The position numbers and the translations under genes were made by a program. The notes under the pieces are model-generated. The model had not been told where the DNA came from, made no database searches, and worked only from the letters and a program-made list of their open reading frames with translations. Positions 7,123-60,487 of a DNA stretch of 64,000 bases are shown in pieces. This stretch comes from Halobacteroidaceae bacterium (GTDB lineage: Bacteria; Bacillota; Halanaerobiia; B1SED10-174), in assembly GCA_003554585.1 (NCBI GenBank), contig PWGV01000163.1, forward strand, positions 6,071 to 70,070, given 5' to 3'. Each line of letters begins with the position of its first letter. Within the stretch, counting starts at the first letter, position 1.

Positions 7123-7127
7123 ACTAT

Positions 7128-7141: not shown

Positions 7142-7151
7142 TATTTTAGAG

Positions 7152-29123: not shown

Positions 29124-29128
29124 AGAAG

Positions 29129-31885: not shown

Positions 31886-31933
31886 AGTTGGAAGAAATTG
31901 GCCCCAAAATTTTACGAGATAGGAGGATTGCTG

Positions 31934-33178: not shown

Positions 33179-33181
33179 ACC

Positions 33182-34381: not shown

Positions 34382-34409
34382 AAAAAGGCTACCGGGAGGG
34401 AGCTTTACT

Positions 34410-36116: not shown

Positions 36117-36197
36117 GAGGAGGTGGTAGGAAGGTTATATGACAAAAAGTTTTCTCATTGCTTGAGGTAACATAATTGCAAAGGAGGTACTTAATTT

Positions 36198-37511
36198 ATG
36201 GATTTTATTGAACGCCAGTTTCAATTAAAGGCCAATAAAACCAACCTGAAAACAGAAATAATTGCTGGGATCACTACCTTTATGACAATGGCCTATATTA
36301 TCTTTGTTAACCCCAGTATCCTGGCTGACGCCGGCATGCCCTGGGAAGGCGTTTTCATGGCAACAATCGCCGGTATTATCCTGGGAACCGTGGCCATGGC
36401 CTTCCTGACCAACTATCCCTTTGCCCTTGCATCGGGGATGGGTTTGAACGCCTTTTTTGCTTACACAGTTGTTATCGGGATGGGTGTACCCTGGCAGGTG
36501 GCCCTGGGGATTATCTTCCTTGAAGGTATTTTGTTTATTATTTTAAGTATAACCCCGGTCCGCAAGATGATTGTAAACAGCATCCCCATGAGTTTAAAAG
36601 CTGCAATCAGCGCGGGGATCGGTCTCTTTATTGCTTTTATTGGTCTGCAAAATGCGGAAATAATTGTTGGTTATGAAGCAACCATGGTGACCATTGGCGA
36701 CCTGGCTTCAGGGCCTCCCCTTGTAGCAATCTTCGGAACCATTGTTATTGGAATACTTTATGCTCTCAAGGTTAAAGGTTCCCTTTTATGGGGGATCCTG
36801 GCTGCTACAGCCTTCGGCGCGCTGCCCGGGATTGGCGTAACCCCGCCTTTTGATGGTATTTTTGCGGCGCCTGATTTTGCAAGCTGGGGACAGGTTTTTG
36901 GAAAACTCGATGTGCGGGGAGCAATTGATATTGGTTTAATCGGTGTAATTATTGCTTTCCTCTTTGTCGACCTTTTTGATACTGCTGGAACCCTGGTCGG
37001 AGTCAGCACCCAGGCCGGATACCTGGACGAAGATGGAAACCTGCCCAAGGCCAATCGGGCCCTGCTCGCTGATGCTATTGGAACTACAGGTGGTGCGATT
37101 TTCGGAACATCCACGGTAACTACCTATATTGAATCTGCTGCGGGTGTTGCTGAAGGCGGAAGGACCGGATTAACCGGGCTGGTAACTGCGTTCCTTTTCC
37201 TTCTGTCAATTTTCTTCATGCCCATAGTTGGTATTGTTCCCGGTGCTGCTACGGCACCTGCTCTGGTAATAGTTGGTACTATGATGATGAGCAATATTCT
37301 CAAAATTGACTGGGATGACTTTACAGAGGTGTTACCCGCTTTTATCGTCATGATTACAATGCCCCTGGCCTATTCCATATCCCACGGGATTGCTCTTGGT
37401 TTTATTTTCTTCCCGATCATCAAGATTTTTACCGGCCGGAGCAAAGAGGTGCATCCCCTGGTTTATACCCTGGGAGCTCTCTTCATCCTTTACTTTATAT
37501 TTATCGAATAA
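36198..37511 (+). CDS. AzgA/PbuG-type NCS2 purine (adenine/guanine/hypoxanthine) permease
   Basis: FQLKANKTNLKTEIIAGITTFMTMAYIIFVNP N-terminus and YIESAAGV. About 12 TM helices. Confidence 0.85.
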   Translation: MDFIERQFQLKANKTNLKTEIIAGITTFMTMAYIIFVNPSILADAGMPWEGVFMATIAGIILGTVAMAFLTNYPFALASGMGLNAFFAYTVVIGMGVPWQVALGIIFLEGILFIILSITPVRKMIVNSIPMSLKAAISAGIGLFIAFIGLQNAEIIVGYEATMVTIGDLASGPPLVAIFGTIVIGILYALKVKGSLLWGILAATAFGALPGIGVTPPFDGIFAAPDFASWGQVFGKLDVRGAIDIGLIGVIIAFLFVDLFDTAGTLVGVSTQAGYLDEDGNLPKANRALLADAIGTTGGAIFGTSTVTTYIESAAGVAEGGRTGLTGLVTAFLFLLSIFFMPIVGIVPGAATAPALVIVGTMMMSNILKIDWDDFTEVLPAFIVMITMPLAYSISHGIALGFIFFPIIKIFTGRSKEVHPLVYTLGALFILYFIFIE

Positions 37512-37519
37512 CAAAAAAA

Positions 37520-37545
37520 GGAGGGGGCGACCCCTCCTTTTTTTT
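37520..37545 (+). terminator. Intrinsic terminator after the purine permease
   Basis: GGAGGGG (37520-37526) pairs with CCCCTCC (37531-37537), followed by T8. Flanked by an upstream A7, so potentially bidirectional. Confidence 0.8.
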
Positions 37546-37565
37546 CCCTGACGGGGGGTGGATAA

Positions 37566-38174
37566 ATGATCGCAGCCGTTCTCCTCGCTGCCGGTGAGGG
37601 ACGCCGGATGAAGAGGCTAAAACAAACCTTACCCTGGGAAAATGAACTTACCCTGGTCCAGGCCAGCCTGGAAAACATCCTGACCTGTAGGGAGATAGAA
37701 GGCCCCATCCGGGTGGTTATTGGAGCCAAAGCAGAGCAGGTTCGGGAAAATTTTAAAAAATATTCTGACCCCCGGCTGGAGATTCGGAGAAACCGGGAAT
37801 ACAAAAAAGGAATGATATCCTCGATAAAAACAGGACTTGCATCGCTACCCGGAGAGGTAAATGGGTTTTTCATAGCTCTTTCCGACCAGCCCCTGATTTC
37901 TTCCGGGACCTATACTGAATTGATAAGAATTTTCCGGGAGGGAGAACATAAAATTATTGTGCCTGTTTACCAGGAAAAAAGAGGGCATCCAGTTTTATTG
38001 TCCTCTGGTTTTCTGGCGGAAATTCTGGAAATGCCGGATAGTCCGGGGGGATTACGTCCCCTGTTAAAAAGGCACCAGGACCAGGTTTTATGGAAGAATG
38101 TAAAAGATCCAGGAGTTACTATCGACCTGGACTATCCCGAGGATTATTTCCATTACAGGAGGGAAGGGAAATGA
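37566..38174 (+). CDS. mocA: MobA-like NTP transferase, MocA-type molybdenum cofactor cytidylyltransferase
   Basis: AAVLLAAGEGRRM N-terminus, ALSDQP and a length of about 200 aa. Precedes yqeB/yqeC. Confidence 0.7.
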   Translation: MIAAVLLAAGEGRRMKRLKQTLPWENELTLVQASLENILTCREIEGPIRVVIGAKAEQVRENFKKYSDPRLEIRRNREYKKGMISSIKTGLASLPGEVNGFFIALSDQPLISSGTYTELIRIFREGEHKIIVPVYQEKRGHPVLLSSGFLAEILEMPDSPGGLRPLLKRHQDQVLWKNVKDPGVTIDLDYPEDYFHYRREGK

Positions 38175-38980
38175 GAAAGGGACCCGTAATCATTAAAGGC
38201 GCTGGAGAGATGGCCTCGGGAACTGCTCATAAGCTCTTTCGAGCTGGTCTGAAGGTGGTAATGACTGAAATTCCCCAGCCCCAGGCTGTTCGCCGGGGAG
38301 TTTCTTTTGCCCAGGCCGTTTTTACCGGGGAACATACAGTTGAAGACGTAACTGCCTGCTGCGTGCAAAAAATCTCGGAAATTATTGAGGTTTTAAATCA
38401 GGGATTTATCCCGGTTCTTCCCCGGCCTCTTACTGCTGAAGAACTGGAGGAATTAAATCCCAGGGCCCTGGTTGATGCTACCCTGGCTAAAGAACAAACT
38501 GATACCTACTGGGGAGAAGCTCCCGTTGTAATTGGGCTGGGGCCTGGATTTCGGGCTCCGGAAGATGTCCATGCGGTAATTGAAACTCAGAGAGGGCATC
38601 ACCTTGGCCGGATATATTTCCAGGGTATTGCTGCACCCAATACCGGAGAACCGGGTGAAATACTGGGTTATACCTGGGAACGGGTTTTAAGATCTCCCGC
38701 AAAAGGCGAATTTGTTGCTTTCCGGGAAATTGGTGATGAGGTTGAAGCAGGAGATGAAATAGGGGTAATTGATAAGCAGGATATGGTCTGTGCAGGGATT
38801 CCAGGAGTCATCCGGGGTTTAATCTATCCGGGTTTAACTGTTGGAAAAGGAACCAAGCTCGGAGATATTGATCCCCGGGGGATCCGGGAGTATTGTTTCA
38901 CAATTTCTGATAAAGCCAGGAACATTGCGGGAGGTGTTCTGGAGGCCTTGCTTTTCCTGGAGGGGAAAAAATATGTTTAA
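38171..38980 (+). CDS. yqeB: YqeB-family selenium-dependent molybdenum hydroxylase accessory protein
   Basis: VIIKGAGEMASGTAHKLFRAGLKVVMTEIPQPQAVRRGVSFAQAVF matches my recollection of the YqeB-family N-terminus. ATGA overlap with mocA. Confidence 0.7.
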   Translation: MRKGPVIIKGAGEMASGTAHKLFRAGLKVVMTEIPQPQAVRRGVSFAQAVFTGEHTVEDVTACCVQKISEIIEVLNQGFIPVLPRPLTAEELEELNPRALVDATLAKEQTDTYWGEAPVVIGLGPGFRAPEDVHAVIETQRGHHLGRIYFQGIAAPNTGEPGEILGYTWERVLRSPAKGEFVAFREIGDEVEAGDEIGVIDKQDMVCAGIPGVIRGLIYPGLTVGKGTKLGDIDPRGIREYCFTISDKARNIAGGVLEALLFLEGKKYV

Positions 38981-39719
38981 ACCCGGTATTGATCCAGTTA
39001 TTTCTCTGATTGGGGCGGGAGGGAAAACCTCAATTTTATATCATTTCGGGGATTGTTCTTCCCGCCTGGGAGAAAAGGTAGTGCTTACCACTACAACCAG
39101 GGTTTTTCCTGTTGAACGGCAGGATGTACCCCTGCTCCTGGAAGAAGACAGGGAGAAAAGAGCCGAAAGGGCAGGAGAACTTTTAAAAACTCATTCCCTG
39201 ATTCAGGTTGGGGCAGGAAGGGTAGGGAAAAAGGTAATTGGAGTTGAACGGGAAACAGTTCAGGACTTCCTGCAGAACGGGGCCGACCGGGTTATTGTTG
39301 AAGCCGATGGAGCCCGGGGTTTGCCTTTGAAATTTCCCGCGGAGCATGAACCCGTTTTACCTTTTCCACCGGGAAGGGTTTTCCTGGTCGTTGGAGCCTG
39401 GGCTCTGGGCCAGCCTTTTTCAGAGAAAATTTTTCACCGGCCGGAGCTTGCCCGGCGTTACCTTAGCTGGAAAGAAGGGCAGCTAATCGAAGGGGAACAC
39501 ATCGCTGATTTACTGCTCCACCCTAAATCATATTTACCGCGCCTGGAAGGGAAAAAAATATCAGTGATTTTAAATGGAGTTCGGGGTATGTGGCAGGAAA
39601 ATGAAGCCCAGAGGATAGGGGCAATTTTGTTCCGCAAAAGCAGGGTAGGAAATATTTACCTCACCAACCTTAAAGACCAACCATTCCTATGGAAATTGCT
39701 AAGAAGAAGGCAGGAATAG
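38973..39719 (+). CDS. yqeC: YqeC-family selenium-dependent hydroxylase accessory protein
   Basis: ISLIGAGGKTSILYHF P-loop-like N-terminus and VIVEADGARGLPLKFPAEHEPV. Overlaps the yqeB stop. Confidence 0.7.
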   Translation: MFKPGIDPVISLIGAGGKTSILYHFGDCSSRLGEKVVLTTTTRVFPVERQDVPLLLEEDREKRAERAGELLKTHSLIQVGAGRVGKKVIGVERETVQDFLQNGADRVIVEADGARGLPLKFPAEHEPVLPFPPGRVFLVVGAWALGQPFSEKIFHRPELARRYLSWKEGQLIEGEHIADLLLHPKSYLPRLEGKKISVILNGVRGMWQENEAQRIGAILFRKSRVGNIYLTNLKDQPFLWKLLRRRQE

Positions 39720-43701: not shown

Positions 43702-44398
43702 AAGCAAGGTCTATGCGAATCAGGGCGCTCCGGCGGGGGTTGGGGAGATACAGCCCTTCCCCGTCGGGGCGGGCGATTTGCCTGGCATGATTGCGGGCCA
43801 TCTGGGGGGAAATACGAAGCTGCTGTGATAAAAATGAAGTGGCTTCTTCCATGTCCTTAACTGGCTGTCCGAAATCAAAAGAGATCAATTCCAGGTGGTA
43901 ATTTAAATCCAGATTTTTCAGGGCTGCTTCTGTTTCCTCGTAAGGCAGGGGAGAAGTAGCCCTTTCCAAACCACTGCCAAAATCTTTTGGGCCCGCCGGG
44001 GCGATTAAGAAAACTTTTCGGCGGGTGTGCTCACAGATTTTTTTTAAACTCTCTTTCCTGCCCATGACCTGAGAACCGGAAAAAGCGGAAATAGTTACAT
44101 CGGCAATAATCCCTTCCGGAAATTCGCCGGGCCAGGAACCGGAGAGGATTTCGATTTTTTCGCAATTCCCGGTTACCTTTTCCAGGTATTTTCGGGGCAG
44201 CGGAGCAGGTTCCAGGTTATAGACCTTTTTTACGTGGCCAAATAGTTCCCGGGAAAAAAGCCCGGGACCTGAACCAATGTCTAAAAGGACATCGTCGGGT
44301 TGCAGGAAGGGTTTAATTTTCTCGATAAAAACACTGGGATAATCCGACTGCTCTCCTGCCTGCAAATACCAGCGCAGGCGATCAATATTCCATCTCAT
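43700..44398 (-). CDS. Class I SAM-dependent methyltransferase
   Basis: Motif I VLLDIGSGPGLF. 4-nt overlap with the upstream NTPase gene. Confidence 0.75.
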   Translation of the reverse strand: MRWNIDRLRWYLQAGEQSDYPSVFIEKIKPFLQPDDVLLDIGSGPGLFSRELFGHVKKVYNLEPAPLPRKYLEKVTGNCEKIEILSGSWPGEFPEGIIADVTISAFSGSQVMGRKESLKKICEHTRRKVFLIAPAGPKDFGSGLERATSPLPYEETEAALKNLDLNYHLELISFDFGQPVKDMEEATSFLSQQLRISPQMARNHARQIARPDGEGLYLPNPRRSALIRIDLA

Positions 44399-44940
44399 CG
44401 GGCCAAAAGCCCCCTTTCACGAAGAAAATTTCCGAGCAGGGATGCGGTTCTCCGCTCCTCGATCCTGTGGATTTCCACTCCAGGGGTAGCCCTGACCCGG
44501 TCCAAAAATGGACTGGACTTTTCCTTGATTACTCCAAGAACCGGCTGGGTTGAACGGAGCCTGGCCAGGACCGCCTGCTGAAACAGAAGGGCTTCTTCCT
44601 CGAAAATTCCCAGCTCGTCCATTATTAACAGGGAACAATTAACCGCCTGCTGGAGGGCCCGGGTGCCTTTCTGATTAAAAGTGCTTAAGACAGGGATCCA
44701 GCGGGAGCAGTTTTTTTTCTGATAGATTACCAGGTCCCGGATGGATCCCTGGAAGGATTTAGTTAGGCAGTATGGTTCCTCCCTGAGGTCAGCCAGCCTA
44801 AAAGCTACTGTTTTCCCGGAAAGAAGCATGCGCTGGACGACAAAACCTCCAACAGGACCCTTAATTTCTGGAATGAAGTCAACTATTAAAGAAGATTTTC
44901 CCCGACGAGGGGGGCCGGTGAGGAAAAAGTTATTGGGCAT
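44395..44940 (-). CDS. THEP1/NTPase_1-like P-loop nucleoside triphosphatase
   Basis: FFLTGPPRRGKSSLI (Walker A), GGFVVQR and LLIMDELGIFE (Walker B). ATG 44940 lies behind a GGAGGA RBS. The longer listed ORF extension is unsupported. Confidence 0.75.
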   Translation of the reverse strand: MPNNFFLTGPPRRGKSSLIVDFIPEIKGPVGGFVVQRMLLSGKTVAFRLADLREEPYCLTKSFQGSIRDLVIYQKKNCSRWIPVLSTFNQKGTRALQQAVNCSLLIMDELGIFEEEALLFQQAVLARLRSTQPVLGVIKEKSSPFLDRVRATPGVEIHRIEERRTASLLGNFLRERGLLAR

Positions 44941-45024
44941 TTGTTCCTCCTGTAAGGTACTAAATTTAAAGCCATTATTGCATACGGGGGATGGAAAGTC
45001 AATATTTATAAGGAGGGGAAGGTA

Positions 45025-46026
45025 ATGAGCGGGATTTACCATAATCTTAAAAAAATGATTGAAGCCGGGAAAGCCGGATTATTTTTTATCGATCTTGACC
45101 AGGAGCCAGGACGGCTGGGCCTTTATGATTCTGGCGGAGACTTTCTCGCTGGAGCTGACTTTGTCCCCAGGGATATAAGGAAAGATGTTATAGATTCCAG
45201 CAAACCTGGCATTCGAAAAAGCTCGGGAGGCAGGATTTATGGAGAGCTAGTGGCCCCGGTCCCCGTCCTTGTAATCCTGGGAGGGGGACATATAGCTAAA
45301 CCCCTTGCAGAAATGGGAAAACAAATTGGGATGAAAACCTGGGTAGTCGACGACCGGAAAGAATTTGCCTCCCCGGAGCGCTTCCCCGGTGTAAATAAAT
45401 TAATTGCCGGAGAATACAGGGAGTTTTTCCGGAAATTCCAGCCGGGCCTGGAACACTTTCTGGTAATAGTGACCCGCGGTCACAGGCACGACCTGAGTTG
45501 TGCCCTTGAGGCTTTGCAAACCAGGGCCTCCTATATCGGGATGATAGGTAGTAAGCGTAAGGTTAAAGAAGTATTTCAAAAATTAAAAGAAGAAGGTTTT
45601 ACAGAAGAAGATATTAGAAGGATTTATGCTCCTATTGGTCTTGATATTGGTGCAGAAAGCCCCGGGGAAATAGCTGTTAGTATTGTCGCTGAGATTATTA
45701 AAGTAAAAAAGGGTAAAGGGGAGCCAGGTAACTGGCAGGAAATCCTTCCTGCCCTGCAGAAGGGCAGCATGCTGGCGACAATAGTCTCTGCCAGCGGATC
45801 TACTCCTCGGGGAGCGGGCGCCCGCCTTCTTTTGCAGCCTGATGGTTCTACAGTAGGAACTGTAGGCGGAGGGCTGGGTGAAGGAAAGGTAATTCAAAAA
45901 GCCCGAGAAATCCAGGGCTCGGGAAGCAAAGTTTTGCTGGATTTTGAACTGGATCAGGATATCGCGGAAGAAGAAGGTATGATTTGTGGAGGTTCTTTTT
46001 CCGTTTTTATTCAACCTGTTGAATAG
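45025..46026 (+). CDS. xdhC: XdhC/CoxI-family molybdenum hydroxylase maturation factor with atypical domain order
   Basis: Rossmann segment VLVILGGGHIAKPLAEMGKQIGMKTWVVDDR...VIVTRGHRHD...IGMIGSKRK. A canonical XdhC_CoxI-type segment sits at the C-terminus (ATIVSASGSTPRGAGARLLL...GTVGGG...GMICGGSFSVFIQP). Confidence 0.8.
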   Translation: MSGIYHNLKKMIEAGKAGLFFIDLDQEPGRLGLYDSGGDFLAGADFVPRDIRKDVIDSSKPGIRKSSGGRIYGELVAPVPVLVILGGGHIAKPLAEMGKQIGMKTWVVDDRKEFASPERFPGVNKLIAGEYREFFRKFQPGLEHFLVIVTRGHRHDLSCALEALQTRASYIGMIGSKRKVKEVFQKLKEEGFTEEDIRRIYAPIGLDIGAESPGEIAVSIVAEIIKVKKGKGEPGNWQEILPALQKGSMLATIVSASGSTPRGAGARLLLQPDGSTVGTVGGGLGEGKVIQKAREIQGSGSKVLLDFELDQDIAEEEGMICGGSFSVFIQPVE

Positions 46027-52651: not shown

Positions 52652-52654
52652 ATA

Positions 52655-52686
52655 AATAAGGCCAATCCTTAAGGATTGGCCTTATT
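52655..52686. terminator. Bidirectional intrinsic terminator between convergent genes
   Basis: Perfect 14-bp stem AATAAGGCCAATCC-ttaa-GGATTGGCCTTATT, with T-rich and A-rich flanks. Confidence 0.85.
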
Positions 52687-52692
52687 TTCCAA

Positions 52693-53847
52693 TTATTTGT
52701 TTTGTTCTTTTAGTTGTTGCGCAAATGAAACTGCGAGGTTAGTATTAAATTTAAATTCAGAAAAAGCTCTATCCAGGGCCGTAAGGGTCCTGAAAATTCT
52801 CCCTGAATCGGAATTGTAACCCATATGGCCCAAACGCCAGATTAAACCATCCAGAGGGCCCAGGCTGCCTCCGATTTGAACCCGGTACTGTTCCCAGAGG
52901 TGTTGCCGGAAGGAGTTATCTGAGATTCCGCCTGGGATAAAAAAGGCGCTTACGGTGCTGGCGAAATTGCTCAGCGGATAGAGCTCCAAGCCGTTAGTTA
53001 ATAGACTCCCCCGGACTGCTGCTGCAAGCTGTTCGTGGTTTTCAAGGACCCAGGGCCAGTTTTCAAGGGCAATTTCACAGGCCACACCAAGGGCCGCGAT
53101 ATCTGGGGCTGGCTGGGTGTAGGGGAAAGTTCCCTTTTTAAGCCAGGTATCCTGCCACACTTTTAAATTTAAGTAGAACCCCCGAAAGGGTTCTTTTCTT
53201 TTTTCGATTTTTTCCCAGGCTCGCGGGCTCAGGGAGAGAAAGGATAATCCTGGAGGAGCAGAGAGGGCTTTCTGGCTGCCTCCCAAAATTACGTCCATCT
53301 TGTTTTGATCAGCATTAACCCGGTCTCCACCAATTGAAGCAACTGCATCAACAATGGAAATTATTCCTTTTTCGGAAAGATAAGGGCAGATCTCTTCCAG
53401 TGGATTGAGAATCCCCGTTGGGGTTTCACAGTGAACCATTGTTGCCAGATTAATCCCGGGGTTTTGTCCTAAGATTTCATCGAGGTCATCCACAGTTATG
53501 GGTTTTCTCCAATCTTTTTCCACGAGGATTGGTTTTCCCCCATAACTTTGCACAAAATCTGCTAATCCTTTTCCGAAAAGACCGTTGGCCAGGCAGAGAA
53601 CCTTTTCGCCAGGTTCAACCAGGCTGGCAATGGAAGCTTCAAGTCCCAGCATTCCCTCGCCGGCCAGGATAAGGACGGGGTTTTGGGTGCCCATAATCCT
53701 TCCCAATTTCGCAGCTGTTTCGCTGTATATTTCTGTAAACCTGGAGTCAAAATCAGGGTTCAACCGGCAACCGGCCATCGCCTCCTGGACCCGGGGATCT
53801 GTTGCAGTGGGTCCAGGGGTAAAAATTAAATCTTCCTGGTAATGCAT
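52693..53847 (-). CDS. Class V aminotransferase (AGXT / serine-pyruvate / PucG-like family)
   Basis: LIFTPGPT N-terminus and the PLP lysine context GGSQKALSAPPGLS. ATG 53847 lies behind an AAAGGAGGA RBS, 13 nt after the mobB-like stop. Confidence 0.85.
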   Translation of the reverse strand: MHYQEDLIFTPGPTATDPRVQEAMAGCRLNPDFDSRFTEIYSETAAKLGRIMGTQNPVLILAGEGMLGLEASIASLVEPGEKVLCLANGLFGKGLADFVQSYGGKPILVEKDWRKPITVDDLDEILGQNPGINLATMVHCETPTGILNPLEEICPYLSEKGIISIVDAVASIGGDRVNADQNKMDVILGGSQKALSAPPGLSFLSLSPRAWEKIEKRKEPFRGFYLNLKVWQDTWLKKGTFPYTQPAPDIAALGVACEIALENWPWVLENHEQLAAAVRGSLLTNGLELYPLSNFASTVSAFFIPGGISDNSFRQHLWEQYRVQIGGSLGPLDGLIWRLGHMGYNSDSGRIFRTLTALDRAFSEFKFNTNLAVSFAQQLKEQNK

Positions 53848-53860
53848 GGTATTTCCTCCT

Positions 53861-54622
53861 TTAGGAATCGGGGGATATTTCAATTTTTATTTCCTGGTGG
53901 GGTTTATAACCCTCCAGGGTTTGCAGATAACCTTTAATAATTCCGGCCAGGGCTTCCTGGACAAATGGAACCATGGGAAGTTCCTTTCCGCCAATACTTA
54001 CTTTCACCCGGCCATCCTGGATTACACACTCGCTGGCCTGGCCCTTATCCCTCAGGATATCCGCGAGGAGTTCACGGCAGGACCTGCCGCAGGCCTCACA
54101 GCACTCGGGAGGGAAGTCAGGAAGTAGAGGAGGTGTTTTTTCCAGGATCAGGGCGGCCAGTTCCCGAAACTTTTTCCGGGCATCGAAAAGCGGAGGGTAA
54201 TCGAAAGGGAGCTTGTTTTCACCCTGGGAAGATATCAGGCCTGAAATTGCAACAGTTCGGGGGTTTTTTAATTCTTCCACATCACCGGTGTTTCTGGCGC
54301 AGAGGATCTGGGGAACATTTAGTTCCCGGTCCCCCTCGATAATTACAATGTCGTGGTGATAAAAAGATAGGATTTCCTGCAGGGGTAGCTGGTAGGGGAA
54401 AATAATATTGGTCTCAAAAAGCCCCCGGCCGGTAACAAGTTCGGCCCCGGCTTCCCTATGACGGTGAGTATTTGACCCGGGTGTCTCCATGGAGAATTTC
54501 TCATAATGAATGTCCTTAATGGAACCCACGCTTAAATTGCGGTGTTTGAATTCCCGGATTAAATTTTCCACCGTTGTTGTTTTTCCAGAACCGCTTATTC
54601 CTATTACTGAAATAACTTTCAT
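53861..54622 (-). CDS. MobB-like P-loop NTPase with Cys-rich C-terminal extension
   Basis: [22 protein letters not shown] (MobB-type Walker A) and DIVIIEGD. There is an extra ~90-aa C-terminus containing PPECCEACGRSC. TAATG overlap with ecfT. Confidence 0.65.
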   Translation of the reverse strand: MKVISVIGISGSGKTTTVENLIREFKHRNLSVGSIKDIHYEKFSMETPGSNTHRHREAGAELVTGRGLFETNIIFPYQLPLQEILSFYHHDIVIIEGDRELNVPQILCARNTGDVEELKNPRTVAISGLISSQGENKLPFDYPPLFDARKKFRELAALILEKTPPLLPDFPPECCEACGRSCRELLADILRDKGQASECVIQDGRVKVSIGGKELPMVPFVQEALAGIIKGYLQTLEGYKPHQEIKIEISPDS

Positions 54623-55362
54623 TAAATCAACCCTTTCAGGTGAAGTGTAACCATGATTAAGCCTCCGGTAAGGCTGAGGATAATTGTGGTGTAATCTCCT
54701 TTCTTGAGCTTAAGAGAATGGAGAAAAGTCCTCCGGGGATAGGACCGGAAGGCCCGGGCTTCCATGGCCAGGGCAATTTGTTTGGAACGGAGAATGGCCA
54801 TGGTTACAAGGGGTAAAAAAAGGCTTTTATAAATCTTCAACTGCTGGGACCAGGGCATTCTTTTGAGGTCAACTCCTCTCAGCTGGAGGGCGGTAAAGAC
54901 ATCATTTGCTTCTTCCCGCAAAAGGGGCAGAAACCTGATGCCCAGGGATACCATGTAGGCAAGTTCATAGGGTAAAGACCAGGCTACAAGGCCCTGGACA
55001 AAACGGCCGGGAGGTGAACTTGCCAGAATTAACCCACAGCAGAGGATAATGAAAAGCCGGAGAACAAGACTTGTTCCCTGGAGAATCCCCTCCAGGGTTA
55101 CAAGGGAGTACTCGCCTACTGTAATTAAGGTGGTGGTCCCGGGGTAGAAAACTGCCTGGATCAAGACAAGCCCCCCCAGGATTATCACCAAACGGCGCAT
55201 TCTCCTGGCAATTTTCAGCGGGTTGCAGTTAAATAAGGGGAGGAGAACCAGGGCCAGGAAAAGGATTGGAACCAGGTAAATGGGGTGGTTAAAAATAACG
55301 GCAAGGGTCGCCAGAACTCCACTTAAAACAAATTTACTTCGGGGGTCTAGTTCTTTCAGCAT
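54622..55362 (-). CDS. ecfT: ECF transporter transmembrane T component (CbiQ/EcfT family)
   Basis: Multi-TM protein carrying the two Ala-Arg-Gly-type coupling helices (ALQLRGVDL and LAMEARAFRS). Confidence 0.85.
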   Translation of the reverse strand: MLKELDPRSKFVLSGVLATLAVIFNHPIYLVPILFLALVLLPLFNCNPLKIARRMRRLVIILGGLVLIQAVFYPGTTTLITVGEYSLVTLEGILQGTSLVLRLFIILCCGLILASSPPGRFVQGLVAWSLPYELAYMVSLGIRFLPLLREEANDVFTALQLRGVDLKRMPWSQQLKIYKSLFLPLVTMAILRSKQIALAMEARAFRSYPRRTFLHSLKLKKGDYTTIILSLTGGLIMVTLHLKGLI

Positions 55363-56033
55363 TGGACCACCCCTTCCATGAGCTGGCCTTTTTTTAATTC
55401 TCGGACGCAGCTGGCCAGTTTTCCGGCAAACTGGTGGTCGTGGCTGATAAGAAGTATTCCCCGGTTTTTTTGTAGCAGTTTATGGAGGTAAAAATAGAGT
55501 TCTTCTTTGCGCCGGGGATCCAGGCCTGTTGTTGGTTCATCGAGGATGAAAAAGGGTGGGTCTAAAGCCATAATTGCTGCTAAAGCAAGGCGCTGTCTTT
55601 CCCCCTGGCTCAGGGTGAAGGGGAATTTTTCCCGCAGGCGGTCAAGGTCAAAAAATTTAAGAAGTTCGGTTACTTTTTCCCGGTTTTCCTCGGAATTTTT
55701 ATTTCGAAACTGAAGGGCAAATCCCACTTCTTCTTCAACACTGGAACAGAATAACTGGCGGTTGGGGTTTTGAAACAAATAACCCACACGCTCCCCGATT
55801 TTTGCCAGGGACAGACTTTCGAGTTTTTGCCCGTCAACGGAAATCTGTCCCTTTTCGGGCTTGATAATCCCAATCAGGATTTTGCTCAGGGTTGTTTTTC
55901 CCGACCCGTTGGCTCCCAGGAGAGCAAGGCATTCTCCGCTGTGCAGTTCAAGGTTAATATTTTCCAGCAGAAAAGGCTGATCTTTTTGATACCGGAAATA
56001 AAGGTTTTTAGCGATTAAAGCCATTGCATTCAA
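55356..56033 (-). CDS. ECF/ABC transporter ATP-binding protein (A' component)
   Basis: GANGSGKTT, LSQGERQRLALA and [10 protein letters not shown]. Confidence 0.9.
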   Translation of the reverse strand: MNAMALIAKNLYFRYQKDQPFLLENINLELHSGECLALLGANGSGKTTLSKILIGIIKPEKGQISVDGQKLESLSLAKIGERVGYLFQNPNRQLFCSSVEEEVGFALQFRNKNSEENREKVTELLKFFDLDRLREKFPFTLSQGERQRLALAAIMALDPPFFILDEPTTGLDPRRKEELYFYLHKLLQKNRGILLISHDHQFAGKLASCVRELKKGQLMEGVVQC

Positions 56034-56707
56034 CTCCAGCGGGCCTGGCCGTTTTCTAGGTGTAACAAACGGTCGGAGGCTGCGAGATTTTCCAGTTGAT
56101 GGTCAACCAGGATTAAACTTTTTCCTGCTTTTTTAAGGGGGAAGATGATTTCCTGGACCCTTCGCCGTCCTTCTTGATCCAACTGGGACAGGGCTTCATC
56201 CAGAATCAGGGTATGGGGTCTCAAAGCAAGAATTGACCCCAGGGCCAGGAGCTGCTTTTCACCCCCGGAAAGCTGGGCAGGATTGGTATAACGGTACTGG
56301 GTCATTCCTGTTAGTTCAAGAACTTCTTTTATTCTTGTTTCAATTTCTTCCGGAGGCAGGCACAGATTTTCAGGACCAAAGGCAATTTCTTCTTCCACTG
56401 TCGTGCAGAACAACTGGGTTTCCGGATCCTGGAAAACCATCCCTATCTTCTGGGACAGCCGGGGAAGAGGAATAGAAGAGAGGGGCTGTTCATCTACCAG
56501 GATTTTCCCCATGATATTTCCGGGAAGGTGCCGGGGAATAATCCCGCTTAAACAGTAGCACAGTGTACTCTTGCCGCAACCGCTGGGACCTGTAATTCCA
56601 ATTACTTCTCCCGGGTTTAGTTTAAAGTTTAGGTCTGTCCAGAGGGGATAATTATCATCCGGGAAGGAAAAGGTAAAATTTTTAACGACAAGCCTGGTTC
56701 CGTTCAT
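56030..56707 (-). CDS. ECF/ABC transporter ATP-binding protein (A component)
   Basis: GPSGCGKST, LSGGEKQLLALG and ILDEALSQLD. 4-nt overlaps with both flanking genes. Confidence 0.9.
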   Translation of the reverse strand: MNGTRLVVKNFTFSFPDDNYPLWTDLNFKLNPGEVIGITGPSGCGKSTLCYCLSGIIPRHLPGNIMGKILVDEQPLSSIPLPRLSQKIGMVFQDPETQLFCTTVEEEIAFGPENLCLPPEEIETRIKEVLELTGMTQYRYTNPAQLSGGEKQLLALGSILALRPHTLILDEALSQLDQEGRRRVQEIIFPLKKAGKSLILVDHQLENLAASDRLLHLENGQARWS

Positions 56708-57228
56708 TCTACCGTCACCCGGGTCAGATACTTACACCAGCGCATGGCAAACTCATCCTGGAGGACAACTGTCATGAAGGGACCATCCCCGCCTTCTTCC
56801 CTCGTTTCAAGCCATTCCCCTTCCCGGGCGTAGACCAGGTAAATATTATTTTCTTCCAGGACTTCCTCGGAACTGTAGGCGATGGTATAACCATCTGCAG
56901 CCCGGGCAATTACCCGGTCAGCTTCTCCGAGGGTTTCGGGGAAGACATGGTTTAGGAATTCATTAAGAGGAACTCCGGTGAAAAAGATCTCGGTATCCTC
57001 TGCTGTGCTGCTGCGCCTGATGGTCCTGATGTTTGTTGCTTTTAAATCGAGGATTTCATCAAGGGTAATATCAACTGCTTCACCGGCAAAACTTATCCGC
57101 AAAATTCTTTCCCTTAATAACTCTCTTTCTTCCTCTACACCGCCGATATTGGCAATGGCCAGAGAAATAATAATGATTGCAAACAGGCCCATAATCCAGT
57201 AAATTTGCTTTGGTTTCAATTCTTTCAT
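56704..57228 (-). CDS. N-terminally membrane-anchored protein with one SUOX-fold (oxidoreductase molybdopterin-binding-like) domain
   Basis: Single TM helix IYWIMGLFAIIIISLAIANIGG. Then FTGVPLNEFLNHV...ARAADGYTIAY...GPFMTVVLQDEFAMRWCKYLTRVTV, which follows the G-x-L...DGY...P-x-R-L-V-V-P...VK-x-L-x-I pattern of PF00174-type domains. Confidence 0.55.
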   Translation of the reverse strand: MKELKPKQIYWIMGLFAIIIISLAIANIGGVEEERELLRERILRISFAGEAVDITLDEILDLKATNIRTIRRSSTAEDTEIFFTGVPLNEFLNHVFPETLGEADRVIARAADGYTIAYSSEEVLEENNIYLVYAREGEWLETREEGGDGPFMTVVLQDEFAMRWCKYLTRVTVE

Positions 57229-57231
57229 TTG

Positions 57232-59103
57232 CTAATTACCTCCTTGCAGGTGAAAAAAGGGGACAATTAGGTCCTGGTAATAAAAACGGCCGTGGTTGCC
57301 CCCTTCAGGGGTTTTTCTCATTCCATGATCCGGCATAATTAAAATATCTCCCGGCCAGAAAGAGGAAATTTCCTGGAGATATCCGTCCAAAACAGAGAGA
57401 GTCTCCATGGTCCTTTGGTCGAAAGGTCCGTATTCGTGGCCGGCAATATCCAGGGATTTGAAGTGGACAAACAAAAGGTCGTAATCTTTCTTAACCATAT
57501 CCCGGGCAGTGATGATTATTTCTTCGTCACCGCGGGGGTGGAGAACTGGAGCAATCTCCGAATAAAGGGGATTTATTGCTCCCTGCAGGCTAGCGACCTT
57601 TAAACCCTGTTCTGCGGAGAGATCAAGGATGTTTTGAACCAGGGGTTCCCGGTCTCTCCGCTGGTGAATTCCGGTCCCGGGAGGAAGTTCCCCGGTTAAA
57701 AGGGAAGCAGTATTTACATTGGTAATCGGGGGGTAGGCTACCCGGGCCATTTTTGTTTCCTCCCGGGAGCCGAGGAAGGGAATTAATTCGTTTTCCCGGG
57801 CGTACAGGAACTGGTCAAAACCAAATCCATCAACCAGGATTAATAGAATTCTTCGGTTATCAGCCATAAGGGTATTCATTTTGGGTACAATGTCAGCGAT
57901 AGAAATATCCGGAGGCTCAAACATTACACCCGCCAGGCTACCCAGAATTTCCTGTCCTTCTTTATCAACCAGGGTAAAGGAATTATTCTCAAAGGCAATA
58001 TGCTGTCCCTCGGGCTCGTAGAGCGCTTCCTCTCCTTTCAGGTTTACGGCGAGGAAAGGGCCGGTATATTCTGCAAAATATTCCTCGAGTTTAATTAAAG
58101 GCTCTGCCTGGTTTTGAGCCAGGAATTCTCCTGGAGTCATGTTTAATAGATTTTTCCTGGGAGTAACGATGCCCAGGGGAGCAGTATCTCCCAGGACAAT
58201 AATCTCCCCAATTCCCTGCAGAATATTTTCTTTCCCGGCCCCACCCAGGTTCCAGGTTCTGCTTTCCTCCTGGATTTCCAGGAAAATTTCATCCAAAGCA
58301 GTGGAGGAAAAATCTATGTTCTCGCCATTTTCTCCCCGCAGGTATACCTTCTGCAGACCAAGTGGTTCGGCTTTTTCCAGAACTTCCTCCAGGGAAATTC
58401 GCTCCTCTGAATAAGAGGAGATGGTGTAGGGGTTATCTACATCGCCTTTAATTTCAAGCGGGGAAACTGCATTTTTATCACTGCCTGTATCCGAACACCC
58501 GGTTAAAAATAGGGAGAAAATTAGCAGGGCGAAGAGCCCCGGTTTCAAAACGTTTTTGAAGAGGGGAGTTTTTTCCAACTGGCGCAGTAATTGAAAACAG
58601 ATAATTCCCCCGCCTCCCCCGGAAAAGGCTCCCAGGAAAAGAGACAGGAGGAGAGGTATAAGGGGCAGGCGGAAAAAAACCACATTAACCAGGAATGTTC
58701 CGCTCAGGTTAGCAAGGGTTCCGGCCATAAAGCAGTGAAAAATTGTGGCTTTCCGGGGTTGCCCAAAAAGAAAAAGCCCAAAATCTACCATTAAGCCGGG
58801 GAGAATATAGGTCATAAGGCTTAAAACCCCGTGGGAACCCACAACTCCCAATGCCATTACAAGGATGGCCTGGATTAAACAGGTTATTGTTGCAGCTCCA
58901 TTTTTATTGACCAGAAACCGGGCCATGACAATCCACATCATATAAAGGCCACCGGCCAGGGCTCCTCCGGGAATAAAAAGTGGAGCAGTGATCATATGCA
59001 CAAGGGGAGTGATTATGGGTTTTGTTGCTATACCCAAAACAGCCATCATGGCCATCAGGGTCAGGTCGAACATGGAAAACCGCAAAAGGTACCGGTGCAG
59101 CAT
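57232..59103 (-). CDS. Fusion protein: ECF S-component-like 6-TM domain, internal lipobox-like TM, linker domain, and C-terminal alkaline-phosphatase-superfamily nucleotide pyrophosphatase/phosphodiesterase domain
   Basis: Residues 1-185 are hydrophobic (LMAMMAVLGIATKPIITP...). Then LFALLIFSLFLTGCSDTG. The C-terminus has ILLILVDGFGFD, YPPITNVNTASLLTGELPPGTGIH, FVHFKSLDIAGHEYGP, IMPDHGM and GNHG, which are NPP/PF01663-type metal and nucleophile motifs. Confidence 0.7.
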   Translation of the reverse strand: MLHRYLLRFSMFDLTLMAMMAVLGIATKPIITPLVHMITAPLFIPGGALAGGLYMMWIVMARFLVNKNGAATITCLIQAILVMALGVVGSHGVLSLMTYILPGLMVDFGLFLFGQPRKATIFHCFMAGTLANLSGTFLVNVVFFRLPLIPLLLSLFLGAFSGGGGGIICFQLLRQLEKTPLFKNVLKPGLFALLIFSLFLTGCSDTGSDKNAVSPLEIKGDVDNPYTISSYSEERISLEEVLEKAEPLGLQKVYLRGENGENIDFSSTALDEIFLEIQEESRTWNLGGAGKENILQGIGEIIVLGDTAPLGIVTPRKNLLNMTPGEFLAQNQAEPLIKLEEYFAEYTGPFLAVNLKGEEALYEPEGQHIAFENNSFTLVDKEGQEILGSLAGVMFEPPDISIADIVPKMNTLMADNRRILLILVDGFGFDQFLYARENELIPFLGSREETKMARVAYPPITNVNTASLLTGELPPGTGIHQRRDREPLVQNILDLSAEQGLKVASLQGAINPLYSEIAPVLHPRGDEEIIITARDMVKKDYDLLFVHFKSLDIAGHEYGPFDQRTMETLSVLDGYLQEISSFWPGDILIMPDHGMRKTPEGGNHGRFYYQDLIVPFFHLQGGN

Positions 59104-59106
59104 TAT

Positions 59107-60159
59107 TTATACCTCCCCATCAAGAGCCTTGATCAATAGAATTCCTCGGATGTGGAAGTTGCGAGGGAGGTGGGAAAAATGGACTCGAAAACTCCCGTCA
59201 TCAAGCTGTTTTATTATTCCCTGCTGGATGTCCTCTAAAGAAATTTCAACTGAATAACCATCAACAGCCTCAATTTTAAGGCCATTGCTCCAATCCAGGC
59301 CGGCTTTTTCAACAAACTTATCCAGGGCGATTCCTTCTTCCCCATTGATTTCTGCTGGGGGAAGATCCTTAATCCAGTTGGACCAGAAAACAATTTTTTC
59401 TCTACCCAGTTGTATTGAACTCAAACCCTTTACCTGGCGGCCCGCGTGCAGTTTCTCTCCGGAAAAAGTTGGGACTCCATTATCCAGGGGGTCTATATAA
59501 GTGTCGGGGATGTCTGACAAACGTTCGGTTTTTGTGTGGCCGTCTGCCGCAGAAAAGAAGATGAAATCACCAATTGGGTTGAGTTCTTCAACGATAGAAG
59601 AGATCAAAACCCGGGAATCAATAACTCCCATTTTTTCGGCCAGGGAAGAGAAAAGGTAAACAGCATCCACCTCTATTTCAAACAGGCCTCCTTCCAGTTC
59701 CGCACGGACGCAATTGCGAACCCAGTACATCATTTCTTCTCCGGGGATTACAACCCGGAGCGGGTATTCATTTTCAGGAAGTTTTTGCCCATCATCCCGG
59801 AAAATGGCCAGGAGGATATTCCGGTTTCGGAATATTTCGGGGGGAATCTGGACAACGTAGCCGTCCTCAGCAATGAAACGGAGCCCTTCCAGGCCTTCCT
59901 GGGAGTAACCTTTATTTTCGAGGATGGTCTGCAAAAGAACTCCCTGGTAGGTCCGCTGCTGTTCTTCGACCACGATAGTTACTTCTTTTTGCTCCAGGCT
60001 TTTGAGAAAAACAGGAGTTAAACTGAGCTTTTCTCCGTCGGGGAGAATTATTTCGAAAACCCATTCCACCCTGCCGCATGGTCCTGCTGCAGCCTGGGGT
60101 AATAGGGTTGTTGTTAGAAGTAGAAAAGCTAACATAATAAAAAGCGCAAGTTTTTTCAT
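59107..60159 (-). CDS. Secreted protein with two to three tandem SUOX-fold (molybdopterin-binding-like) domains
   Basis: Sec-type signal MKKLALFIMLAFLLLTTTLLPQAAAG with no twin arginine. Repeats: YQGVLLQTILENKGY...FIAEDGYVVQI...PLRVVIPGEEMMYWVRNCVRAEL; SAADGH; and GIALDKFVEKAGL...IEAVDGYSVEI. Confidence 0.6.
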   Translation of the reverse strand: MKKLALFIMLAFLLLTTTLLPQAAAGPCGRVEWVFEIILPDGEKLSLTPVFLKSLEQKEVTIVVEEQQRTYQGVLLQTILENKGYSQEGLEGLRFIAEDGYVVQIPPEIFRNRNILLAIFRDDGQKLPENEYPLRVVIPGEEMMYWVRNCVRAELEGGLFEIEVDAVYLFSSLAEKMGVIDSRVLISSIVEELNPIGDFIFFSAADGHTKTERLSDIPDTYIDPLDNGVPTFSGEKLHAGRQVKGLSSIQLGREKIVFWSNWIKDLPPAEINGEEGIALDKFVEKAGLDWSNGLKIEAVDGYSVEISLEDIQQGIIKQLDDGSFRVHFSHLPRNFHIRGILLIKALDGEV

Positions 60160-60233
60160 TAAAATTTTCCTCCTTGGATTATTTACTTTAGATTGTGGAT
60201 GATTTAAAATAGATTAATTTGTTCCCTGGAAGT

Positions 60234-60263
60234 GAAAATAAAAAAACCTCCGGAAAGGGAGGT
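60234..60263 (-). terminator. Intrinsic terminator acting as the riboswitch expression platform
   Basis: The minus strand reads ACCTCC-ctttcc-GGAGGT followed by TTTTTTTATTTT. Lies about 75 nt upstream of the first operon gene. Confidence 0.7.
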
Positions 60264-60283
60264 CAGGTACAGACTAAGGTACC

Positions 60284-60377
60284 ACTCCTTTCCACACTGG
60301 GAGGCACAGCCGTTTCCAGCAGTGCCCTATCGGCTTGAGGCCAGCCCAACAAGGGGTAAGGCGTTCAAGCTCGGAGT
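60284..60377 (-). promoter_or_regulatory. Moco (or Tuco) riboswitch-like aptamer (cis-regulatory RNA)
   Basis: Minus strand: ACUCCGAGC...GCC-uua-CCC-cuuguu-GGG-cu-GGCCUC...GGCAC-u-GCUG-GAAA-CGGC-u-GUGCCUCCC-agugu-GGAAAGGAGU. P1 pairs ACUCC with GGAGU. The CCGAGC, GCCUC, GCCUCCC and GGAAAGGAG blocks match my recollection of the Moco RNA motif. Not verified with a covariance model. Confidence 0.6.
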
Positions 60378-60487
60378 CAATTTTCTGTTCCTTTTCTTAA
60401 TTCGTGAATACCCTGGAAACCCCTTTATTTTTTGCAGGAATTTTTATAATAAGAGGAGAAATTGTTCAAAAATGTACAAGACGAGGG

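Follow-up and report, generated by a model that had tools for sequence, protein, structure and literature searches.

A riboswitch-controlled ECF operon with exported pterin-fold proteins is a candidate salvage system for molybdenum and tungsten enzyme cofactors

Introduction

The energy-coupling factor (ECF) importers of group I, among them YkoEDC for thiamine and hydroxymethylpyrimidine (HMP), BioMNY and CbiMNQO, are the closest described relatives of an operon that we have analysed in a Halobacteroidaceae bacterium. The operon lies in a stretch of 64,000 nucleotides (assembly GCA_003554585.1, contig PWGV01000163.1, positions 6,071–70,070 of the forward strand), referred to below as the window and numbered from its first nucleotide. 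Like the known importers, it encodes its own substrate-binding (S) component, assigned to the YkoE family PF09819, together with two ATPases and a CbiQ/EcfT-type coupling protein, and it is headed by a riboswitch of the kind that responds to an end-product cofactor, a salvage logic in which expression is repressed when the cofactor is plentiful. The known group-I importers operate without extracytoplasmic binding proteins, whereas operons of the present type retain a small anchored protein (sX) in 82 of 94 loci and a larger exported protein (X3) in 51 of 94, with substrate delivery as their putative role. They are further set apart by an ecto-phosphodiesterase and often a flavoprotein, by the fusion of the S component to the enzyme in two lineages and by a predicted substrate class, related to the molybdenum (Mo) and tungsten (W) cofactor, that is without precedent among ECF systems.

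Surface capture next to an importer is known from the Isd/NEAT heme relay of Gram-positive bacteria and from BtuG/BtuH, which capture vitamin B12 in Bacteroides. As in these systems, one and the same binding domain is found in wall-anchored, membrane-anchored and multi-domain proteins near the importer, suggestive of a relay; the binding fold is a different one, the importer is of the ECF rather than the type-II ABC or TonB-dependent kind, and the relay is here a proposed one. A further parallel is provided by ecto-nucleotidase salvage, such as the NadN/PnuC route for NAD and the extracellular hydrolysis of FAD and FMN before uptake by RibU. There, a cofactor linked to a nucleotide is first cut at the cell surface by a phosphodiesterase or phosphatase, the product is imported and an intracellular kinase traps the vitamin. 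The operon differs in its proposed substrate, a pyranopterin, and in that its enzyme is, in the window, fused to the S component; its relatives have a Bud32/RIO-like kinase, which is absent from the window.

The exported proteins find their counterpart in PruR (PDB 7KOS, 7KOU, 7KOM, 7KP2 and 7RKB), a small secreted protein with a truncated, Cys-less sulfite oxidase (SUOX) fold that binds pterins in the periplasm, namely tetrahydromonapterin and neopterin, and not the molybdenum cofactor (Moco) (PMC11194511). The two share the absence of the Mo-ligating cysteine, and a pterin-contacting N/D-x-Y motif can be aligned between PruR and the sX family. PruR itself is proteobacterial, carries a P-W motif, is paired with a DcpA-type (GGDEF/EAL) cyclic di-GMP enzyme and acts in signalling; the operon proteins instead carry (K/R)-S-S, are often multi-domain or anchored by SLH or Big_2 domains, and have ECF, nucleotide pyrophosphatase/phosphodiesterase (NPP) and MobB proteins as partners, with a GGDEF protein nearby in a single locus (L078; L numbers denote fetched loci). 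The described regulons of riboswitches for Moco or the tungsten cofactor (Tuco) comprise moaABCDE, modABC, tupABC, WOR1 and the FecCD-type 'fet' genes of Eubacterium limosum. With these the operon shares the aptamer family, its P3-less subclass, a terminator-type OFF platform and membership in Mo/W cofactor supply, although its target, an ECF transporter with pterin-fold and phosphodiesterase ectoproteins, is not among the regulon members in the literature that we found. No ECF system for Mo, W or Moco is described in the literature searched (the initial annotation of the window was likewise aware of none for Moco), nor is a bacterial transporter for Moco, Tuco or molybdopterin; the only related work concerns dietary (bacterial) Moco in nematodes. 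Here we set out the evidence on this operon and its relatives, and on balance we lean towards reading it as an ECF salvage system under riboswitch control, for which neither the substrate class nor the accessory machinery has a precedent.

A P3-less Moco-family riboswitch heads the operon

A Moco-motif-like RNA had been noted ahead of the operon in the initial annotation, and the covariance model bears this out. In cmscan the leader matches RF01055 over its full length (model positions 1–135 of 135) at 62.1 bits, well above the gathering score of 36 (E = 1.7e-12), and it is the sole Rfam match at gathering level in the whole window; the aptamers of orthologues in L004, L010, L012 and L013 score 62–67 bits. 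An intrinsic terminator (60264..60245) with its U-run starts 5 nt downstream of the aptamer, and folding of the whole leader yields a folded aptamer beside this free-standing terminator (-10.3 kcal/mol). The conserved GGAAAGGAG segment at the 3' end of the aptamer, which forms the 3' strand of P1, can also pair with CUCCCUUUCC in the 5' arm and loop of the terminator, and this antiterminator (-16.8 kcal/mol) forms once the 5' strand of P1 is left out of the folding. The layout is that of a classical transcriptional OFF switch and, with family membership given by score, full length and platform, the operon is predicted to stand under OFF control by a P3-less Moco-family RNA.

The nature of the effector can be approached through the P3 hairpin, whose columns are deleted in the alignment of the window aptamer and which is absent from all 35 aptamer alignments inspected, the window included. 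Four longer aptamers (134–142 nt) were considered as possible P3 carriers and rejected, their alignments showing a longer P2 loop and no P3. The P3 hairpin marks the Moco-sensing subclass, while the P3-less class is associated with tungsten-cofactor metabolism and has been proposed to sense Tuco (Regulski et al. 2008, PMC2408646); in E. limosum, operons with terminator-type P3-less riboswitches are derepressed under tungsten limitation (PMC11725836). Because the inspected aptamers are all P3-less, their sequences make Tuco a likelier effector than Moco, which the initial annotation had assumed.

The operon is a local variant of a widespread cluster

Relatives of the S domain are numerous: a word-indexed protein search returned 1,302, many of them 50–60% identical, an exhaustive HMMER search resolved 274 clusters at 50% identity, and relatives occur in 354 species-representative genomes. 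The closest record (97% identity) is a Bacillota metagenome-assembled genome (MAG) from soda-lake sediment, and the neighbouring relatives are Halobacteroidaceae. All open reading frames (ORFs) of 94 fetched loci were clustered into families, and riboswitches were counted over 80 loci. A canonical gene order emerges from this census, in which a P3-less riboswitch is followed by an FMN_bind lipoprotein (f8), X3 (~365 aa), sometimes a copy of sX, the S component, NPP (~500 aa), sX (~170 aa), EcfA, EcfA', EcfT, a MobB protein with a four-cysteine tail and a kinase-like protein (f7). This canonical operon is found in Clostridia, Tissierellia, Halanaerobiales, Peptococcaceae, Sumerlaeota, Dehalococcoidia, Thermotogaceae and Actinomycetota.

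Besides sX and X3, for which the counts are given above, the S component is present in 75 of the 94 loci, the ATPases in 71, EcfT in 70, NPP in 57, MobB in 51, f7 in 31 and f8 in 24. The first relatives had made NPP and X3 look like lineage-specific accessories, a notion overturned by these counts. In the f7 family, the Lys, Asp, Asn and Asp that characterise protein-kinase-like kinases are invariant, and among proteins of known structure its sequences match Bud32, RIO2 and aminoglycoside phosphotransferases best. Fusions of NapH-like and FMN_bind domains occur in 11 loci, and a flavinylation motif is present in 29 of 35 FMN_bind proteins. NCBIfam holds no model for X3, f7 or the S subfamily of the operon. 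Compared at the sequence level with this widespread conserved cluster, the window operon is best described as a local variant, with S and NPP fused and the kinase and flavoprotein absent.

Riboswitches were sought with a strict sequence pattern, then with a relaxed one, and finally checked against Rfam. The strict pattern gave 25 of the 80 loci; eight of nine candidates from the relaxed pattern were confirmed by Rfam, which also recognised the aptamer in all eight canonical loci overlooked by the strict pattern. In total, at least 41 of the 80 loci carry an RF01055-type aptamer, always upstream and on the operon strand, so that the co-occurrence of gene set and riboswitch proposed at the outset as a check does recur across genomes. 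The fetched DNA yielded no riboswitch in those Tissierellia loci where giant SLH proteins come first, at the locus edge, or in the architectures of Syntrophomonas, Desulfoscipio, Formimonas and Thermoleophilia. Two genomes have tandem P3-less aptamers ahead of the operon (L031 5971–6223 and L043 2455–2701), an arrangement that could provide a sharper, more digital response. The named hosts are anaerobes (among them Syntrophomonas, Pelotomaculum and Halanaerobiales) and many of the MAGs come from anaerobic digesters or sediments, anoxic habitats in which a labile cofactor could persist.

The exported proteins carry a PruR-like fold

The initial annotation had described the 350-aa X3 as two or three SUOX-fold-like domains and the 174-aa sX as a single one, and had suggested PF00174 and SUOX structures for comparison. 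The number was roughly right, since an sX-family hidden Markov model (HMM) recognises residues 2–155 (E = 1.5e-20) and 275–313 (E = 1.6e-4) of X3, that is, one full and one partial domain. The PF00174 matches are likewise real, albeit partial: they cover profile positions 69 to 156 or 160 of 169, the C-terminal two-thirds of the Moco domain, and the N-terminal third is missing. SorA aligns with the sX family over its C-terminal half only. At the position of the Mo ligand, the alignments show no cysteine, the conserved residues there being (K/R)-S-S or S-R-G-K, and the idea of a SUOX-type Moco site does not survive this comparison.

SUOX does not hold as the best relative either. For the AlphaFold model of sX (pLDDT 67), the seven best PDB matches in Foldseek are all PruR (E = 6e-6 to 4e-5, probability 1.0, target-normalised TM-scores 0.62–0.70), and sulfite dehydrogenases rank below them (E ~0.02). 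A family profile built from 35 sequences matches PruR 7kos and 7kom at 8e-7 over nearly the whole domain. The sX motif D112-G-Y114 aligns with the pterin-contacting N102-x-Y104 of PruR, the aspartate being invariant in the family and the glycine conserved in at least 90%, and the profile alignment shows the pterin-stacking tyrosine to be conserved. A conserved R-W near the C-terminus of sX lies outside the aligned stretch and may correspond to W160 of PruR. The models thus point to a pterin-binding-type fold akin to that of PruR and not to SUOX-type Moco sites. A catalytic Mo/W site is unlikely, because both the Mo-ligating cysteine and the N-terminal third of the Moco domain are absent; with neither a complete Moco domain nor its cysteine ligand, the exported proteins are not SUOX enzymes, and the label of molybdopterin-dependent oxidoreductase is wrong for them.

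All but one of 98 sX proteins (97) begin with an anchor or signal. The same type of domain is found in large surface proteins with SLH or Big_2 anchors, whose genes lie within the operon or beside it, and an export or anchor segment at the N-terminus is almost universal among the proteins with this domain. In the Actinomycetota locus L078, a gene for a GGDEF diguanylate cyclase (6824–7903) directly follows the kinase gene, which recalls the PruR-DcpA pair.

The S component and its ecto-phosphodiesterase

The 623-aa fusion protein had been read as an S-component-like domain joined through an internal lipobox-like segment to an NPP-type enzyme, and each part of this description is confirmed, by PF09819, by PF01663 with ENPP matches in Foldseek, and by the invariance of the lipobox cysteine C203 in all eight fusion proteins. 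The S domain has 65 invariant positions that are common to its fused and stand-alone forms, and the AlphaFold model of the fusion shows six transmembrane (TM) helices followed by a seventh (TM7). It should be borne in mind that the AlphaFold models of this study were built from shallow alignments and are of moderate confidence (pLDDT 67 and 62). By sequence the S component belongs to the YkoE family and not to the metal-specific CbiM/NikM family, an assignment that derives from Pfam PF09819 only, given that the S-domain profile found no YkoE match among the PDB sequences. Members of the YkoE family bind thiamine/HMP, a heteroaromatic vitamin (PMC5037267).

The region behind the lipobox aligns, over residues 204–404, with the N-terminal part of the stand-alone NPP family; the model predicts beta strands for residues 216–395 at low to moderate confidence, and the sX-family HMM finds no match in residues 204–404. 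In the catalytic domain, D425, T461, D552, D592, H593 and H604 are invariant among the fusions, and in the NPP family as a whole the catalytic residues Asp, Thr, Asp, His, Asp, His and His are preserved. The top Foldseek matches are Xanthomonas NPP and ENPP1/3/5/6/7 (E ~1e-6), and the family profile matches 2gsn and ENPP4. The surface NPP is accordingly predicted to be a phosphodiesterase with intact two-metal ligands and threonine nucleophile.

In the canonical operon, S and NPP are adjacent, separate genes. The fusion spans positions 10–494 of the NPP-family profile, the N-terminal signal region included, and for this reason we take the C203 lipobox to be the retained lipoprotein signal of a once-separate NPP. 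Fusions are rare, with eight clusters in the word-indexed search, and a second fusion of different architecture occurs in Thermoleophilia/Actinomycetota. Apparent fusions in L059, L067 and L070 were rejected by HMM checks, which leaves the window lineage and Thermoleophilia/Actinomycetota. Some Halobacteroidaceae lack X3 and NPP, and their stand-alone S proteins end in remnants of TM7, lipobox and linker (L012 5205–5813 and L013 6352–7059). These remnants show that X3 and NPP were deleted recently in some Halobacteroidaceae, and the simple operons without them are deletion derivatives of the canonical one.

Energy coupling, MobB and the layout of the operon

Both window ATPases have ECF ATPase models as their best matches, below the equivalog cut-offs. 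With EcfA, EcfA', EcfT and S encoded in one operon, the gene products can be assigned by sequence to a dedicated ECF importer of group I. The MobB-like protein exceeds the thresholds of both TIGR00176 (85.6 bits vs a cut-off of 76.2) and PF03205 (80.2 vs 26.6). Its Cys-rich tail follows the pattern CC-x2-C-x3-C…C, for which PRK14494 (MobB/FeS) is the best match, below cut-offs; the family has a mean column identity of 63% across phyla, and its cysteines are conserved.

The last gene encodes a class V aminotransferase, with NF046070 as the best NCBIfam model (1.5e-68, below its cut-off). A role as Moco-sulfurase-like cysteine desulfurase was considered and discarded, as desulfurase models match weakly and AGXT/PhnW models best. 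The gene is present in nine loci and is a lineage-specific addition. In Pelotomaculum (L055), an unrelated lineage, a class V aminotransferase gene lies directly upstream of S, and the link between the two may be functional.

The features of the operon are collected in Table 1. Eight closely packed minus-strand ORFs follow the aptamer; their junctions are, in gene order, two 3-nt gaps, two 4-nt overlaps, a 7-nt overlap and a 1-nt overlap, and the last is a 13-nt gap if the aminotransferase starts at the ATG at 53847, the start also found in the L004 orthologue. The palindromic hairpin at the operon end sits between two convergent stop codons. The architecture drawn up in the initial annotation therefore stands, with eight minus-strand genes joined by overlaps of 1–7 nt or gaps of at most 13 nt and a perfect bidirectional terminator at their end. 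Its domain calls were all matched by Pfam and NCBIfam, including those for the two ABC ATPases, EcfT, the MobB-like nucleoside triphosphatase (NTPase) and the class V aminotransferase.

Table 1. Features of the operon in window coordinates, in order of transcription
Feature	Coordinates	Strand	Evidence
Moco/Tuco riboswitch aptamer, P3-less variant	60269..60388	-	RF01055, cmscan
Expression platform, intrinsic terminator (7-bp GC-rich stem and U7)	60237..60264	-	terminator scan, folding
X3, Sec-exported 350-aa protein	59107..60159	-	PF00174 partial, 29.6 bits, profile 69-156/169
S-NPP fusion ORF, 623 aa	57232-59103	-	PF09819 and PF01663
ECF S-component domain (predicted), residues 1-185 of fusion	58549..59103	-	PF09819 E = 2.9e-12
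TM7 and internal lipobox (…FLTGC, C203) of fusion	58495..58548	-	C203 invariant in 8/8 fusions
Extracytoplasmic N-terminal beta-rich NPP region (predicted), residues 204-404	57892..58494	-	AlphaFold model, family alignment
NPP/ENPP-type catalytic domain, residues 405-623	57235..57891	-	PF01663 E = 3.7e-11
sX, membrane-anchored 174-aa protein	56704..57228	-	PF00174 partial, 26.5 bits
EcfA, ABC ATPase	56030..56707	-	PF00005 E = 1.2e-28; TIGR04520 ECF_ATPase_1 top NCBIfam match, 7e-59
EcfA', ABC ATPase	55356..56033	-	PF00005 E = 2.8e-33; top NCBIfam TIGR04520, TIGR04521
EcfT, CbiQ family coupling component	54622..55362	-	PF02361 E = 8.8e-27
MobB-like P-loop NTPase with Cys-rich C-terminal domain	53861..54622	-	PF03205 E = 1.7e-22; TIGR00176
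Class V aminotransferase, AGXT/PhnW/pyridoxamine-pyruvate-like	52693..53847 (ORF to 53883)	-	PF00266 E = 3e-14
Perfect 15-bp palindromic hairpin, bidirectional terminator	52654..52687	.	read from sequence

Gene neighbourhoods and the Mo/W cofactor

The link of the operon family to Mo/W cofactor metabolism is robust and drawn from multiple independent gene associations. A MoeA gene is inserted between MobB and f7 in L026, and the neighbour scan found two more MoeA-family proteins, probably equally sized inserts at the same spot in L038 and L070. A molybdopterin oxidoreductase is encoded downstream of EcfT in L034, ApbE leads the operon in L069, and in L065 the operon continues beyond f7 with TupA-, TupB- and WtpC-like genes. 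The riboswitch-less Thermoleophilia loci encode a short helix-turn-helix (HTH) protein that matches the ModE repressor domain best (6e-18, below cut-off), as well as a PF03266 NTPase. A FecCD-type importer is embedded within the riboswitch-led operon in six loci (L024, L027, L028, L042, L043 and L074).

Several further observations concern these neighbours. The embedded set (for example L043 3645–7375) combines the FecCD permease and its ATPase with a Peripla_BP_2 binding protein, a TiaS-TCKD-like protein and DUF364/DUF4213. It resembles the E. limosum transporters that are controlled by Tuco riboswitches and regarded as 'iron' transporters (PMC11725836), and the true substrate of the latter may deserve another look. 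In the window, a PF03266 NTPase_1 gene (44395–45042, minus strand) is divergent from XdhC, and PF03266 NTPases adjoin the ECF operon in Thermoleophilia, L018, L073 and L081; the family may represent a recurrent Mo/W-cofactor-associated NTPase. In the Sumerlaeota loci L047, L059 and L067, the riboswitch and operon are closely preceded by genes for small NifX/NifB-type proteins with the 'dinitrogenase FeMo-cofactor' domain (PF02579). In L037 the operon is followed, at a distance of a few kb, by a CRISPR array with RF01315 repeats (14923–15419).

The organism of the window is itself a committed Moco user. Two Mo hydroxylases of the xanthine dehydrogenase (XDH) type at 26784–31885 and a MobA/MocA-like gene at 37566 were found where the initial annotation had seen them. 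They form part of a plus-strand purine-catabolism cluster (25468–39719 and 45025–46026), which also encodes dihydropyrimidine-dehydrogenase-like subunits, adenine deaminase, permeases, YqeC and XdhC. YqeC is an accessory factor of selenium-dependent Mo hydroxylases. Just upstream on the plus strand, two ORFs (24174–24785 and 24813–25484) correspond to the N-terminal (profile 2–198) and C-terminal (211–388) halves of one xanthine/uracil permease, hence a split or frameshifted gene or a sequencing error. As stated in the initial annotation, no moa, moe or mog gene is visible, in our case among the ~48 window ORFs scanned (seven large ORFs in the first 24 kb lay outside the scan), a negative that covers the 64-kb window only and says little about the whole genome.

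The nature of the cargo

We propose that the operon encodes an importer for a pyranopterin phosphate compound that stems from Moco or Tuco and is captured outside the cell, with processing outside and re-metalation inside, and we put the probability of this reading at roughly 55%. The cargo is suggested to be an organic pyranopterin phosphate rather than the bare metal because the capture domains are of a pterin-binding fold, because the S component falls into the YkoE and not the CbiM/NikM family, and because TupABC-like (L065) and FecCD-type (six loci) importers are co-encoded, so that the metal appears to be handled separately from the ECF cargo. That the cargo is an organic phosphate is suggested by the combination of a phosphodiesterase outside and a small-molecule kinase inside the cell, which mirrors vitamin-salvage routes, and by the fact that S and NPP were fused twice, in lineages with different architectures. 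The modelled likeness of the exported domains to PruR fits the capture of a pterin ligand, and the flavoprotein, NapH-like and ApbE components suggest redox processing outside the cell with either the pterin or the metal as target. The general idea of a Moco-family salvage importer, put forward in the initial annotation, is thus strengthened by the comparative evidence, while Moco becomes the less likely effector and the SUOX-type domains are given up. The trimming of MGD and MCD, re-tailoring by MobB and MocA, and Moco auxotrophy are putative details of that annotation.

The system would work as follows. When the cofactor is scarce the operon would be transcribed, and the exported pterin-fold domains would capture an extracellular pyranopterin phosphate compound. 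This could be Moco or Tuco itself, a dinucleotide form of either, or else a precursor or breakdown product that other anaerobes release. The capture domains may then pass it on towards the membrane, much as NEAT domains relay heme. NPP would remove the nucleotide or phosphate outside the cell, and in those genomes that encode one, the flavoprotein would keep the pterin in its reduced state or restore it. The S component and EcfAA'T would then import the pterin, the kinase of other genomes would re-phosphorylate it inside the cell, and MobB together with MoeA would support the re-insertion of W or Mo. The finished cofactor would bind the riboswitch, whereupon transcription would be terminated. 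Taken as a whole, with PruR-like capture, ecto-NPP and flavin reductase, ECF import, Bud32-like kinase, MobB and MoeA, and feedback by a Tuco riboswitch, this would be the first dedicated prokaryotic uptake and salvage system for pyranopterins, a composite claim that we advance tentatively and at slightly less than even odds.

A number of points weigh against the proposal. The ligand of every component is a prediction from sequence or fold. Moco would not fit into the pocket of PruR, which is too small (PMC11194511), the sX model by which its own pocket would have to be judged is of moderate confidence (pLDDT 67), and the site of the PruR P-W motif is (K/R)-S-S in the sX family. The window operon has neither the kinase f7 nor an FMN_bind flavoprotein, and its aminotransferase is without a role in the scheme. 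Close relatives without the NPP domain and X3 still keep the transporter and the rest of the system, and the trimming of a dinucleotide therefore cannot be obligatory. Non-canonical architectures have no riboswitch in the fetched DNA. Moreover, Moco-family riboswitches usually govern metal transporters or biosynthesis genes, and the MobB, MoeA and ModE-like neighbours would fit metal uptake equally well.

The strongest competing explanation is an ECF importer of the metal itself, as tungstate, molybdate or a thio or complexed form in sulfidic, alkaline sediments, in which the SUOX-like and alkaline-phosphatase-superfamily domains would capture oxyanions and MobB and MoeA would pass the metal to molybdopterin. 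Active sites of the alkaline phosphatase superfamily do bind tungstate, molybdate and vanadate as phosphate mimics, which counts in its favour, as do the loss of NPP and X3 from relatives that keep the system, the presence of MoeA and MobB within the operon and the ModE-like regulators adjoining riboswitch-less loci. Riboswitches of the Moco family often precede modABC, tupABC and wtpABC (PMC2408646, PMC11725836), and all aptamers inspected are of the tungsten-associated P3-less type. However, such an importer would be redundant beside the TupABC-like system of L065 and the FecCD-type systems of six other loci; the S component belongs to a family for organic heterocycles and not to CbiM/NikM, the nearest structural relatives of the exported domains bind pterins and not oxyanions, and neither the kinase nor the intact phosphodiesterase nor the flavin reductase module has an obvious part in oxyanion uptake. 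We consider metal import unlikely on these grounds, while taking it seriously.

Two further explanations fare less well. The SUOX-like proteins, FMN-binding protein, NapH-like polyferredoxin and ApbE could together form an extracytoplasmic redox system, a surface reductase or oxidase, for which the ECF module would traffic a cofactor outward or aid maturation, as has been proposed for FAD in extracellular electron transfer of Listeria. The 24 loci with FMN_bind lipoproteins, the 11 with NapH-like/FMN_bind fusions, the flavinylation motif in 29 of 35 proteins, the ApbE gene inside the operon in L069 and the giant SLH- or Big_2-anchored surface proteins with the same domain all speak for it, and ECF subunits are already known to be used for extracytosolic flavin trafficking elsewhere (PMC9973259). 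Yet the SUOX-like domains, without the Mo-ligating cysteine and N-terminal third, are poor candidates for a catalytic Mo/W site, an OFF riboswitch fits a supply function and not an enzyme that consumes the cofactor, the window operon has no flavoprotein, and the kinase, MobB and MoeA are cytoplasmic cofactor-handling proteins; a redox system is consequently improbable. Uptake or sensing of ordinary, non-Moco pterins of the neopterin, monapterin, biopterin or folate-related type, with the riboswitch link incidental, would agree with the ligands of PruR, the nearest structural relative (tetrahydromonapterin and neopterin; PMC11194511), and with the GGDEF protein after the operon in L078. An incidental link is hard to reconcile with a riboswitch in at least 41 loci of several phyla and with MobB in 51 loci beside the MoeA, TupABC-like and ModE-like genes that also occur, and both the P-W motif of PruR and a DcpA-type partner are absent, making this the most remote of the explanations.

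Implications

A conserved, riboswitch-controlled operon of 8–12 genes in several hundred anaerobe species makes the movement of a labile Mo/W cofactor between cells a directly testable matter; the operon family is the best candidate so far for bacterial scavenging of the pterin cofactor of Mo/W enzymes. Should the cargo turn out to be the metal, there would still be novelty in a tungstate system of the ECF type that has pterin-fold ectodomains. If pyranopterin salvage is true, the ECF paradigm would be widened to include extracytoplasmic capture proteins and ecto-enzymes, and functions would be gained for misannotated or uncharacterised groups such as the exported PF00174-domain proteins, the MobB/FeS proteins and the Bud32-like kinase. 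The Mo/W cofactor would then join B12, thiamine and further vitamins as a traded micronutrient in guts, digesters and sediments, and Moco and Tuco would be a shared, exchangeable 'vitamin' of anoxic microbial communities.

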